The notes under the pieces were generated by a model. That model was not told where the DNA came from. It was given only the letters and a program-made list of their open reading frames with translations, and did not search any database. This document shows positions 56,615-58,267 of a stretch of DNA of 64,000 nt, piece by piece (positions within the stretch are counted from its first letter, which is position 1; each line of letters starts with the position of its first letter). The stretch comes from Parachlamydiales bacterium (GTDB lineage: Bacteria > Chlamydiota > Chlamydiia > Chlamydiales > Rhabdochlamydiaceae). The DNA is taken from NCBI GenBank assembly GCA_963705295.1, contig OY970065.1, positions 1,984,001 to 2,048,000 on the forward strand, written 5' to 3'. A program made the position numbers and the translations under genes.

Positions 56615-58162
56615 ATGACGATCCGTTTTGCCGGTCTACCTTCCGCTAAGCACTGGGAAAAAATCGGTGTAAAGAATCGACATGGGATTAATATTCCTTT
56701 GGGGAGTCTGCGCAGCTCAAAAAGTTCTGGGATTGGAGAATATGGAGATCTCCTCCCGCTGATCGACTGGTGCCGGGAACTTGGATTTGAAGTGATTCAA
56801 CTCCTTCCGATCAATGATTCTGGAACAGATCCATCGCCCTACAATGCCCTCTCTTCGTGCGCCCTTCATCCCATTTATCTCTCGCTGGACCTTCTTCCTG
56901 GAAATCCCTCCGTGCCCGATGCGCGTCATCTCAATGAGCTTCCGCGGATCTCCTATTTGGAAGTCTTAACCTTAAAGCTCAACTTCCTGACACACTATTG
57001 CACGGAAGTCGGAGATAAGATCGCAAAAACTGAAGATTTTAAAAATTTTGTTCAGCAAAACACTTGGCTGACTCACTACACTCTTTTCAAAGTGCTCAAA
57101 GATAAACTCGGCCAAACCCCTTGGATGACTTGGCCTGATGAACTCAAAAACCATAATTTCCAAAAACTCGAAGAAGAACATCGCGACCAAATGCAGCTGT
57201 ATCTCCTTCTCCAATATTTTTGTCATCTGCAGCTATCGGAAGTCAAAGAATATGCCAACTCAAAAGGGATTCTCTTAAATGGTGATATCCCTATTCTCCT
57301 CAGCAAAGACAGCGCCGATGTTTGGTTTAAACCCCATCTTTTTAATTTTTCACTCTCCGCAGGTGCGCCGCCTGATGCCTTTAATAGCCAAGGTCAAAAT
57401 TGGGGATTTCCTATTTTAGAATGGGATCAACTCCGCAATAGTGACTTTCTTTGGTGGAAACAGCGACTTCAAGTGGCCTCCCAATATTTCGATCTATATC
57501 GGATCGACCATGTCGTCGGTTTTTTCCGCATCTGGGCCATTCCTTCTAATAACCATCCCAAAAAAGGTTTTTTTCTCCCTGAAAATCCAGCCAAATGGGT
57601 TCCGCATGGGAGAGAAATCCTCCAAATGATGCTCAATAGCACCCTCATGCTCCCCATCGCAGAAGACCTTGGGGATGTCCCTCCATCGGTCCGAGTGACA
57701 CTGGCCGAACTTGGCATTTGCCGCACCCTCGTCATCCGCTGGGAACGTCTGTACGACCTCAAAGGAGAATATATTCCCTATGACAAATACACACCTCTCT
57801 CGATGACGACCGTCTCTACCCACGACTCAGAAACGCTCCAACTCTGGTGGCAAACGGGTAATGATGAAGTCAAAGCCTTTTGCGCTTTCAAAAAATGGAA
57901 CTACTCTCCCGACCTTTCCTTCGACCAACGGCTCCAAATTCTCCGCGATTCCCACCATACCGCCTCCCTTTTCCACATCAACCTTCTCCCCGAATATCTC
58001 GCCCTTTTCCCCGAGCTTGTCGCCCTGAGTCCCCTGGACGAACGGATCAACACCCCCGGCAAGACCCTCCCCACCAATTGGACCTATCGCCTCCGCCCCT
58101 TTCTATCCGAAATGCTCTCCCACGAACCCCTAAAGAAGGCTATTAAGGAAATAGTAGGATAA
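56615..58162 (+). CDS. malQ: 4-alpha-glucanotransferase (GH77)
   Basis: IQLLPIND, SPY, GDIP, GAPPDAF..GQNWGFP, RIDHVVGFFRIW, AEDLG, STHD, RINTPG. Confidence 0.96.
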   Translation: MTIRFAGLPSAKHWEKIGVKNRHGINIPLGSLRSSKSSGIGEYGDLLPLIDWCRELGFEVIQLLPINDSGTDPSPYNALSSCALHPIYLSLDLLPGNPSVPDARHLNELPRISYLEVLTLKLNFLTHYCTEVGDKIAKTEDFKNFVQQNTWLTHYTLFKVLKDKLGQTPWMTWPDELKNHNFQKLEEEHRDQMQLYLLLQYFCHLQLSEVKEYANSKGILLNGDIPILLSKDSADVWFKPHLFNFSLSAGAPPDAFNSQGQNWGFPILEWDQLRNSDFLWWKQRLQVASQYFDLYRIDHVVGFFRIWAIPSNNHPKKGFFLPENPAKWVPHGREILQMMLNSTLMLPIAEDLGDVPPSVRVTLAELGICRTLVIRWERLYDLKGEYIPYDKYTPLSMTTVSTHDSETLQLWWQTGNDEVKAFCAFKKWNYSPDLSFDQRLQILRDSHHTASLFHINLLPEYLALFPELVALSPLDERINTPGKTLPTNWTYRLRPFLSEMLSHEPLKKAIKEIVG

Positions 58163-58267
58163 CAAGATGTGCAGGATCGCCTTCGGCGGCAGGATATGCA
58201 GGATGATAAATTCTTCCTTATCGTGCATATCCTGCCGCCGAAGGCGATCCTGCTTATCCTGTTCTCC
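58157..58267. repeat. Single 111-bp palindromic element of the same family as the 138..973 array
   Basis: 50-bp arms 58157-58206 / 58218-58267 with 6 mismatches, each carrying CGCC-TTC/GAA-GGCG; includes the malQ stop codon. Confidence 0.95.

Follow-up and report, generated by a model that had tools for sequence, protein, structure and literature searches.

In the DNA stretch analysed here, a 64,000-nt window of the genome of a Parachlamydiales bacterium (contig OY970065.1, positions 1,984,001 to 2,048,000), the gene malQ ends within a 111-bp palindromic element located at positions 58157..58267 of the window. The element is probably a non-autonomous palindromic intergenic repeat that survives directly after stop codons and resembles miniature transposable elements with inverted repeats (MITEs) in its dimeric copies and bacterial interspersed mosaic elements (BIMEs) in its arrays (estimated probability about 0.65). 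Its unit is an arm of approximately 50 bp built from GCA(G)GAT hexamers in a 9-bp phase, and two inverted arms make up one element; a short GC hairpin embedded between the second and the third hexamer characterizes this subfamily. The phased hexamers are the most likely recognition sites of the mobilizing enzyme. In this lineage, the copy at malQ has inserted into the very short spacer downstream of the gene, replacing the last codon and the stop codon. The window is part of a single 2,131,910-bp contig with 43.8% GC.

Anatomy of the element at the malQ end

The head-out palindrome consists of a left arm on the plus strand (58157..58206), an 11-nt AT-rich central loop (taaattcttcc, 58207..58217), and a right arm on the minus strand (58218..58267). 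Both arms matched positions 1-50 of an nhmmer arm profile (E 1.5e-15 for the left and 1.9e-14 for the right arm). Read from the outside to the inside, the general order of an arm is GGA(T/G)AAC, CA(A/G)GAT, three nucleotides, CAGGAT, CGCC-TTC-GGCG, G, CAGGAT, three nucleotides, and CA(G/C)GAT. The left arm comprises a GGATAAC head, CAAGAT, CAGGAT, the small hairpin CGCC-TTC-GGCG (58178..58188, plus strand, assigned from the sequence and the fold of the 11-mer), two further CAGGAT hexamers, and a GA tail. The right arm, read on the minus strand, has the head GGAGAAC, two CAGGAT hexamers, the small hairpin (58236..58246, CGCC-GAA-GGCG in plus-strand reading), CAGGAT, and CACGAT. The hexamers start at positions 58163, 58172, 58190, and 58199 in the left arm, which corresponds to spacings of 9, 18, and 9 bp, and in mirrored arrangement at positions 58220, 58229, 58247, and 58256 in the right arm. 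In both arms, these starts agree with the layout given in the initial annotation of the window, which had described heptamer-like repeats at 9-bp spacing around a CGCC-TTC-GGCG hairpin. From the spacings it follows that the small hairpin occupies exactly one 9-bp register between hexamers 2 and 3. As an inverted repeat, the arms cover 48 nt each (58157-58204 and 58220-58267) with 90% complementarity and 15 nt between them, and thus provide the terminal inverted repeats (TIRs) expected of a MITE.

The first six bases of the element, GGATAA (58157-58162), are the last codon (GGA) and the stop codon (TAA) of malQ (56615..58162, plus strand), a 515-codon open reading frame (ORF) encoding a GH77 4-alpha-glucanotransferase (Pfam PF02446, E 1.9e-118). 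The fusion of the element to the malQ stop codon, which had been noted before, is therefore exact.

The arm family in the genome

The nhmmer arm profile detected 47 arm modules at 19 loci in the whole genome and thus more than the two loci of the window. The cataloguing of all copies, proposed in the initial annotation, confirmed that the element is dispersed, whereas its description as a solo copy holds within the window only. Eight loci, including the malQ copy, are head-out dimers with GGAKAAC on the outside and AT-rich inner loops of 11-14 nt. Tail-out dimers with TTATCCTGC on the outside and variable inner linkers (7-35 nt) occupy another eight loci, one of which carries two dimers; the remaining loci are an alternating array of 11 arms and two single or degenerate arms. 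The copies in this genome range from 111 to 162 bp and are, as is typical of MITEs, small, non-coding, and dispersed. The sequence CAGGATNNNCAGGAT occurs 39 times in the genome, always within the 19 loci, and 23 of the 24 genomic copies of the 11-mer CGCC-TTC-GGCG are located within element loci.

Conservation was determined from 26 non-redundant arms, with a regular-expression parser that read 31 of the 47 arms. Hexamer positions 1, 2, 4, 5, and 6 were mostly conserved to 96-100% (0.81 at position 1 of the second hexamer), while the third hexamer base was variable and the 3-nt spacers between the hexamers were conserved to 65-96%. Because of the strict conservation of the hexamers and of their 9-bp phase, as opposed to the free variation in between, the hexamers are presumably read by a protein. 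The small hairpin is kept as a structure, since of 26 different central segments, taken from the genome studied here and from others, 22 fold with stems of differing sequence (CGCC/GGCG, CGGC/GCCG, CGCACC/GGTGCG, CGCCCC/GGGGCG, and CCCCAG/CTGGGG among the variants). The segments from other genomes were retrieved with the canonical core, and the dominance of the canonical hairpin (137 copies) is due to this search design with the core as bait. As related elements without the hairpin exist, the phased CA(G)GAT hexamers and not the small hairpin are the defining part of the family. Phased hexamers combined with an optional, structure-conserved hairpin point to a recognition protein.

The alternating array is also part of the window (159..973; 5.6 units of 146 bp with 99% matches according to TRF), and its end lies about 57 kb upstream of position 58157, in agreement with the distance given earlier. 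It contains 11 arms of alternating orientation (nhmmer arms at genome positions 1984171-1984950), which are joined by linkers of 11 nt (tail-tail) and 24 nt (head-head), so that each unit is composed of a 122-bp version of the element and a 24-bp linker. An arm 30-mer searched with up to three mismatches gave eight matches in the window, six in the array and two in the malQ element; the match between arm and array is not due to chance, because none of 100 shuffles matched the 30-mer. The 111-bp and the 122-bp copies differ by 11 bp at a single place, where CTTCG between CGC and GCG is replaced by ACCAAGTAAACTGGGT. This replacement had been described correctly, and since both versions fold as hairpins, so had the change of the letters with retention of the structure. 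The opposite orientation ascribed to the malQ copy was not upheld, as an orientation relative to the array is not assignable: the overall identity to the array unit is 91/111 forward and 89/111 as reverse complement, the ends favour the reverse strand, and the loop favours the forward strand (10/14 identical positions in forward and 6/14 in reverse orientation).

Rearrangements were seen at other copies. At genome positions 118361-118765, two tail-out dimers lie in a direct duplication of about 287 bp, and the 22-bp spacer that separates the arms in the second duplicate is the exact reverse complement of its counterpart in the first, which indicates an inversion by recombination between inverted arms. 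Growth of the loop by internal tandem duplication is visible at two loci (2115323-2115405 and 1810434-1810595), with three copies of AAGAATAGGCC-like 11-mers at one and two copies of CCCGAAGAAAAG at the other.

Copies at gene ends and the malQ site in congeners

The position of the copies was compared with a crude gene set of ORFs of at least 100 codons, according to which about 88% of the sequence is coding. At 12 of the 19 loci, a total of 15 element ends fall between -6 and +8 bp from an ORF stop, and in three convergent gene pairs both element ends abut both stops. In all nine pairs of genes with the same direction and an element end within 17 bp of the stop, the element lies closer to the stop (gap of -6 to 17 bp) than to the following start (29-503 bp; sign test, p about 0.004). 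A single locus is situated between divergent genes. No credible ORF is interrupted by an element at any of the 19 loci; a 240-codon antisense ORF across one copy is taken to be spurious. In the MITE/BIME-like scenario, copies would persist mainly where they are least harmful, just past a stop codon but before the following promoter. The proximity to stops may simply reflect that a genome so densely packed with genes offers no other harmless site of insertion.

The gene downstream of the malQ copy (58297..59814, plus strand, from the ORF list) encodes a protein with a transglutaminase-like core and tetratricopeptide repeats (TPR; Pfam PF13369, E 1.9e-16) and starts after a gap of 29 bp. MalQ was found in nine congeners with approximately 70% amino acid identity, and the order of malQ and the gene for the transglutaminase-like TPR protein is kept in four of them. 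In three of these four, the malQ 3′ flank is empty, which answers the comparison with relatives suggested in the initial annotation: the spacers without element consist of an ATGA stop/start overlap (-4), about 20 bp, and about 55 bp. The spacer of the fourth congener and that of one rearranged relative harbour a different GC-hairpin repeat, and neither the arm profile nor a relaxed motif detected an arm in any of 11 loci of relatives. Removal of the 111 bp leaves a spacer of about 23 bp, similar to those of the relatives. The MalQ C-termini, KEIVG* here and KAILK* in the congeners, are equal in length, and the end of the element has therefore replaced the last malQ codon and the stop without changing the length of the protein. 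The element is thus able to rewrite the end of a gene.

The repeats in the malQ spacers of the two relatives (GGGGGC...GCCCCC and GGGCGC...GCGCCC) have ATCTATCT-like tails. Since a different repeat family fills the spacer in these two cases, the malQ 3′ spacer looks like a hot spot. Long-loop variants of the arm hairpin in the genome studied here (...GAAAAGATAGGGGCG) resemble these spacer repeats. Between the element and the downstream gene (58262-58296), a -10-like box CCTATAAT is located 6 nt before the ATG, and its counterpart CCTATGAT is conserved in two congeners. The last six bases of the element, TTCTCC, lie 17 nt upstream of CCTATAAT, at the would-be -35 position.

Distribution among chlamydiae

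In a collection of species-representative genomes, the 24-nt core CAGGATCGCCTTCGGCGGCAGGAT was found without mismatch in 87 genome stretches; among the 80 of these that were listed, all matches with a phylum label were metagenome-assembled genomes (MAGs) of Chlamydiota except two labelled ‘Verrucomicrobia’ and one labelled ‘Bacteroidetes’, and several were labelled just ‘uncultured bacterium’. Exact copies were also present in 92 metagenome stretches. With up to two mismatches, four other chlamydial genomes contained 5, 19, 20, and 58 copies of the core (reversed control, 0). In an even sample of the phylum, the core was detected with up to one mismatch in 17 of 401 genomes including the genome studied here (reversed control, 0), namely in 0 of 13 congeners, 1 of 89 other members of the same family, 7 of 46 genomes of family f6, and single genomes in several other families. 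Head-out pairs account for 42 of the 87 loci in other genomes.

A looser phased motif had a wider reach: of 61 genomes examined in the same family, 11 contained at least six copies (maximum 103; reversed control, 3 or fewer). The core family is hence one branch of a wider superfamily. One congener of 99% completeness has zero copies of the motif. The simplest members are palindromes of about 75 bp, in which AACAGGAT-nnn-CAGGAT-nnn-CAGGAT is followed by an AT-rich loop and the inverse sequence and which have no GC hairpin; some of them hold a palindromic insert of 200 bp. This triple-hexamer type reached at least six copies in 5 of 151 genomes of the phylum sample and occurred as a mismatched singleton in 4 of 27 genomes of a small-genome family (f4). 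In some genomes, arms form the base of perfect palindromes of 300-560 bp. Long palindromes such as those of this family could plausibly break assemblies and confuse the annotation of chlamydial MAGs. As judged from these searches, the superfamily appears to be confined to environmental Chlamydiota.

Obligate intracellular chlamydiae are usually described as repeat-poor and closed to gene flow. The core is nearly letter-identical in distant chlamydiae and yet missing from most close relatives, which argues for horizontal spread and insertion. An exact 24-nt core shared across chlamydial families in this way is direct evidence that environmental chlamydiae exchange DNA.

Two loci outside the genome studied here have an unusual structure. 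In another chlamydial genome (contig positions 958700-961400), an element starts 6 bp past the stop of a dnaA-like gene, and about 100 bp comprising the gene end and the left arm are duplicated on both sides of a 1.35-kb insert, which encodes a 296-aa coiled-coil-like ORF. On a metagenome contig (2265-3380), two tail-out dimers bracket a two-gene cassette of about 850 bp encoding a 101-aa protein without Pfam match and a 136-aa Xre-type HTH_3 protein; the cassette looks like a toxin-antitoxin pair.

RNA hairpin and possible effect on malQ

The RNA of region 58140-58290 folds as a single extended hairpin with an energy of -90.3 kcal/mol (z -14), a stability not reached by any of 200 shuffles. 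Transcription of malQ would consequently generate an RNA hairpin of about 48 bp directly behind the stop codon, which could serve as a 3′-end structure, either as a barrier to exonucleases, as a substrate of RNase III, or as an insulator from the downstream gene. RNase III is encoded in the genome (256.8 bits, cut-off 166). TIRs of Correia elements are cut by RNase III, ERIC sequences (repetitive intergenic consensus sequences of enterobacteria) at 3′ ends change mRNA decay (PMC10969869, in part), and QMITE2 copies are located in 3′ untranslated regions (UTRs; PMC5896051, in part). No terminator-like site was called in 57900-58500 and no promoter-like site at the locus; a U-tract after the hairpin is absent, and the flanks past the arms are free of T-runs. 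The element is therefore not a canonical intrinsic terminator. The family offers a set of natural 3′-end hairpins for measuring mRNA fate in a group with few genetic tools.

In E. coli, long palindromes are destroyed by SbcC/SbcD. In the genome studied here, SbcC gave no match and the best SbcD match reached 30 bits (cut-off 77.65), while the control was found in 14 of 14 genomes; a genome without detectable SbcC/SbcD fits the tolerance of palindromes of 100-560 bp in these genomes. A known RNA family was rejected for the element, as the only matches in Rfam were miRNA-precursor hairpin models below the cut-off (best 43.9 bits versus 70). The motif CAGGAUG corresponds to the CsrB-like repeat bound by CsrA. 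A role as CsrA sponge was rejected because PF02599 was not found in this genome (the control was found in 3 of 14 known genomes).

Mobility and alternative explanations

The initial annotation had proposed a mobile non-autonomous element and had connected its small hairpins with HUH transposases. Mobility is in accordance with the 19 dispersed loci, the patchy sharing of the core, and the empty malQ site in three congeners, whereas the connection with HUH transposases did not withstand the analysis described below.

Several results weigh against a mobile MITE/BIME-like repeat. An autonomous parent is lacking: in a sample of loci, no transposase was located between distant arm pairs or beside unpaired arms, and a parental insertion sequence (IS) with the same ends, as expected for a MITE, was not found. 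The intervals between arms 0.7-4.4 kb apart contain housekeeping genes (for ProRS, MurJ, NqrA, globin, and SSB) or, in one case, a small cassette of the Xre type. In two element-rich genomes, a search of 3.5 kb around 14 unpaired arms revealed no partner. A simple MITE bounded by TIRs does not account for the tail-out dimers at eight loci. No direct repeat that would indicate a target-site duplication recurs consistently in the flanks of 17 loci; the one 7-bp match (tctaaaa, genome position 2063279) is perhaps due to chance. As the closest other copy in the genome shares 89% identity with the malQ element over 83 bp only, recent movement in this genome is not shown. The empty malQ site could also be explained by an old loss, the congeners being distant with approximately 70% MalQ identity. 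The proximity to stops is weaker in other genomes, where a stop lies within 12 bp of the outer end at 22 of 87 loci. Finally, the effect on the malQ mRNA is suggested for a hairpin that is not followed by a U-tract and was not called as a terminator.

A carrier function of plasmids or phages was rejected, as the 111-bp element remained unmatched in 72,556 plasmids and 50,697 phages (distant mode). In viral contigs, the 24-mer core had 0 matches, and a viral carrier was also dismissed on the basis of the triple-hexamer matches, which were only tandem runs on one strand; the 80 loci listed did not include an inverted pair. One IS630-type IS adjoins a mini-palindrome but has its own, unrelated ends. 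The motif was not accepted as a DnaA box, with whose consensus it shares only TTATCC without CACA.

A more far-reaching version assumes that an undescribed transposase or DNA-binding protein docks at the array of phased CA(G)GAT hexamers, that the superfamily, whether or not the hairpin is present, is transferred horizontally among chlamydial families that have amoeba hosts in common, and that copies in this genome were recruited to mark gene ends in the half of the chromosome nearer the origin. We regard this as a speculative and rather unlikely possibility. If it applied, the superfamily would be both a marker and a vehicle of inter-chlamydial DNA exchange.

Alternatively, the hexamers might constitute an iteron-like binding array for a host DNA-binding protein with a chromosome-scale role, e.g., in nucleoid organization, segregation, or the definition of an origin domain, with the palindromic repeat acting as a vehicle. 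The far better conservation of the hexamers compared to the 3-nt spacers and the strict 9-bp phase are compatible with such a role. At the variable positions, the arms of one dimer agreed in 4.1 of 6 and arms from different loci in 3.8 of 6 cases; since dimer arms are no more alike than arms of different loci, the long hairpin itself is not what is kept. Moreover, the 19 loci are all confined to a sector that has the GC-skew origin at its centre and makes up 55% of the chromosome (skew minimum at about 310 kb, maximum at about 1.34-1.40 Mb). The largest locus-free gap amounts to 45.5% (840-1810 kb), with P about 3e-4 under the assumption of independent loci, a value that is too optimistic because the loci are clustered, and two further genomes for which long contigs exist show no comparable void. 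The motif is patchy even within the genus, as illustrated by the congener of 99% completeness without a copy, and a candidate protein was not identified; motifs of Waddlia Euo, HrcA, and PhoB from chromatin immunoprecipitation sequencing (ChIP-seq) are unlike the hexamers (PMC4989314, in part). Taken as an alternative to a MITE/BIME-like repeat, a host binding array is improbable.

A further candidate, which we consider a little less credible still, is an element of the repetitive extragenic palindromic (REP) type or of the type of REP doublets forming hairpins (REPINs), mobilized in single-stranded form by an enzyme that would recognize CGCC-TTC-GGCG, namely an HUH (Y1) transposase of the REP-associated tyrosine transposase (RAYT) or IS200/IS605 type. 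The preservation of the hairpin by compensatory stems in 22 of 26 variants, the lack of a consistent target-site duplication in the flanks inspected, as predicted for HUH elements, and the resemblance of the alternating-unit arrays to BIMEs would be explained, and intact Y1_Tnp genes are present in five of five core-rich genomes. However, 15 Y1_Tnp loci from 11 genomes were inspected over about 1.5 kb of flank, and neither an arm nor a tandem CAGGAT motif turned up at any of them. Nor is the abundance of the element tracked by Y1 genes; within the family, 4 of 6 genomes rich in the element and 3 of 8 genomes poor in it possess them. All that the genome studied here has of Y1 is a fragment of 43 codons, which contains an in-frame TGA and is remote from every arm. 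Neither a GTAG nor a CGTC tag occurs in the consensus GCAGGAT-CGCC..., the hairpin is missing altogether from related elements, and the DNA fold of a single arm did not exceed its shuffled versions in stability (z -0.4).

An immobile regulatory hairpin at gene ends, i.e., a terminator or stabilizer that spread between loci through recombination or gene conversion and was maintained by selection, would account for the tight seat against stop codons and the strong RNA fold, and the exactly inverted 22-bp spacer of the duplicated copies shows that recombination between arms takes place. The identical 24-nt core across chlamydial families together with its absence from congeners is nevertheless difficult to account for unless transfer and insertion took place. 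Neither a U-tract nor a terminator signature is present, one copy lies between divergent genes, and another locus is a tandem array of 5.6 units. This explanation is very improbable in comparison with a mobile repeat.

The least plausible proposal, an attC-like folded site for a tyrosine recombinase placed 3′ of a gene as in integron cassettes, could invoke the imperfect palindrome directly 3′ of an ORF, an inner hairpin more conserved in structure than in sequence, ends of the form ...AAC/GTT... as in R″ and R′ boxes, and the metagenome locus with dimers flanking a small two-gene cassette, but it is hardly conceivable, since no integron integrase was found (best TIGR02249 match 81 bits versus a cut-off of 265, the matches being ordinary Xer-like recombinases), the element ends GGAKAAC/GTTMTCC differ from the attC box consensus RYYYAAC/GTTRRRY, the copies are scattered behind housekeeping genes without forming cassette arrays, and the 24-bp ‘cassettes’ of the array are mutually identical.

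Relationship to known repeat families

With REP, BIME, and REPIN sequences, the MITE/BIME-like family shares short hairpin-bearing extragenic units located mostly 3′ of genes, inverted pairs with head-head and tail-tail junctions, alternating tandem clusters outside genes, such as the array at 159-973 with its 11 arms, and, as far as the flanks inspected show, the lack of a consistent target-site duplication (PMC3733652). It differs by an arm of about 50 bp that is mostly non-palindromic and consists of four direct hexamers and an 11-nt hairpin. The GTAG/CGTC tag described for these repeats in PMC3733652 is missing as well, GTAG occurring in three arms only, through a C-to-T change. Whereas REP-type sequences belong to enterobacteria and pseudomonads, the host here is a member of the Chlamydiota, and no RAYT flanked by arms was seen at the 15 Y1 loci.

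Correia elements of Neisseria (Correia repeat enclosed elements, CREE, also known as NEMIS) and ERIC sequences are similar in being palindromes of 100-160 bp with long inverted ends and no transposase, and they are co-transcribed with their neighbours as long RNA hairpins that act on mRNA stability via RNase III or RNase E (PMC10969869, in part). There is no sequence similarity to either, and the inverted ends of the family described here are made of hexamers in a 9-bp phase. According to the same source, Correia elements duplicate TA and carry promoters and a site for the integration host factor (IHF), while a TA duplication and a promoter were not found here (PMC10969869). QMITE2 of Coxiella burnetii is likewise a small MITE of an obligate intracellular host, with mainly 3′ UTR or intergenic locations and an embedded small palindrome; its direct repeats of 7-11 nt and its IS1111-targeted GTAG REP have no counterpart here (PMC5896051, in part). 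Rickettsia palindromic elements (RPEs) are palindromes of an intracellular host that are able to overlap coding sequences, as does the malQ copy by supplying a codon and a stop, but RPEs typically reside in frame inside genes, whereas just the last codon and the stop of malQ are touched here (PMC10969869, in part).

The arm family was not described in the chlamydial repeat literature searched, whose scope excluded the supplements of PMC2878342 and PMC4989314; the repeat analysis of the Waddlia genome paper covered only repeats larger than 200 bp (PMC2878342). We have filed the arms as a new family of MITE/BIME-like palindromic repeats with an unusual end architecture. Another palindromic element, present as a single copy and unrelated in sequence to the CAGGAT family, is located at the start of an aldo/keto reductase gene (genome positions ~924014-924213).

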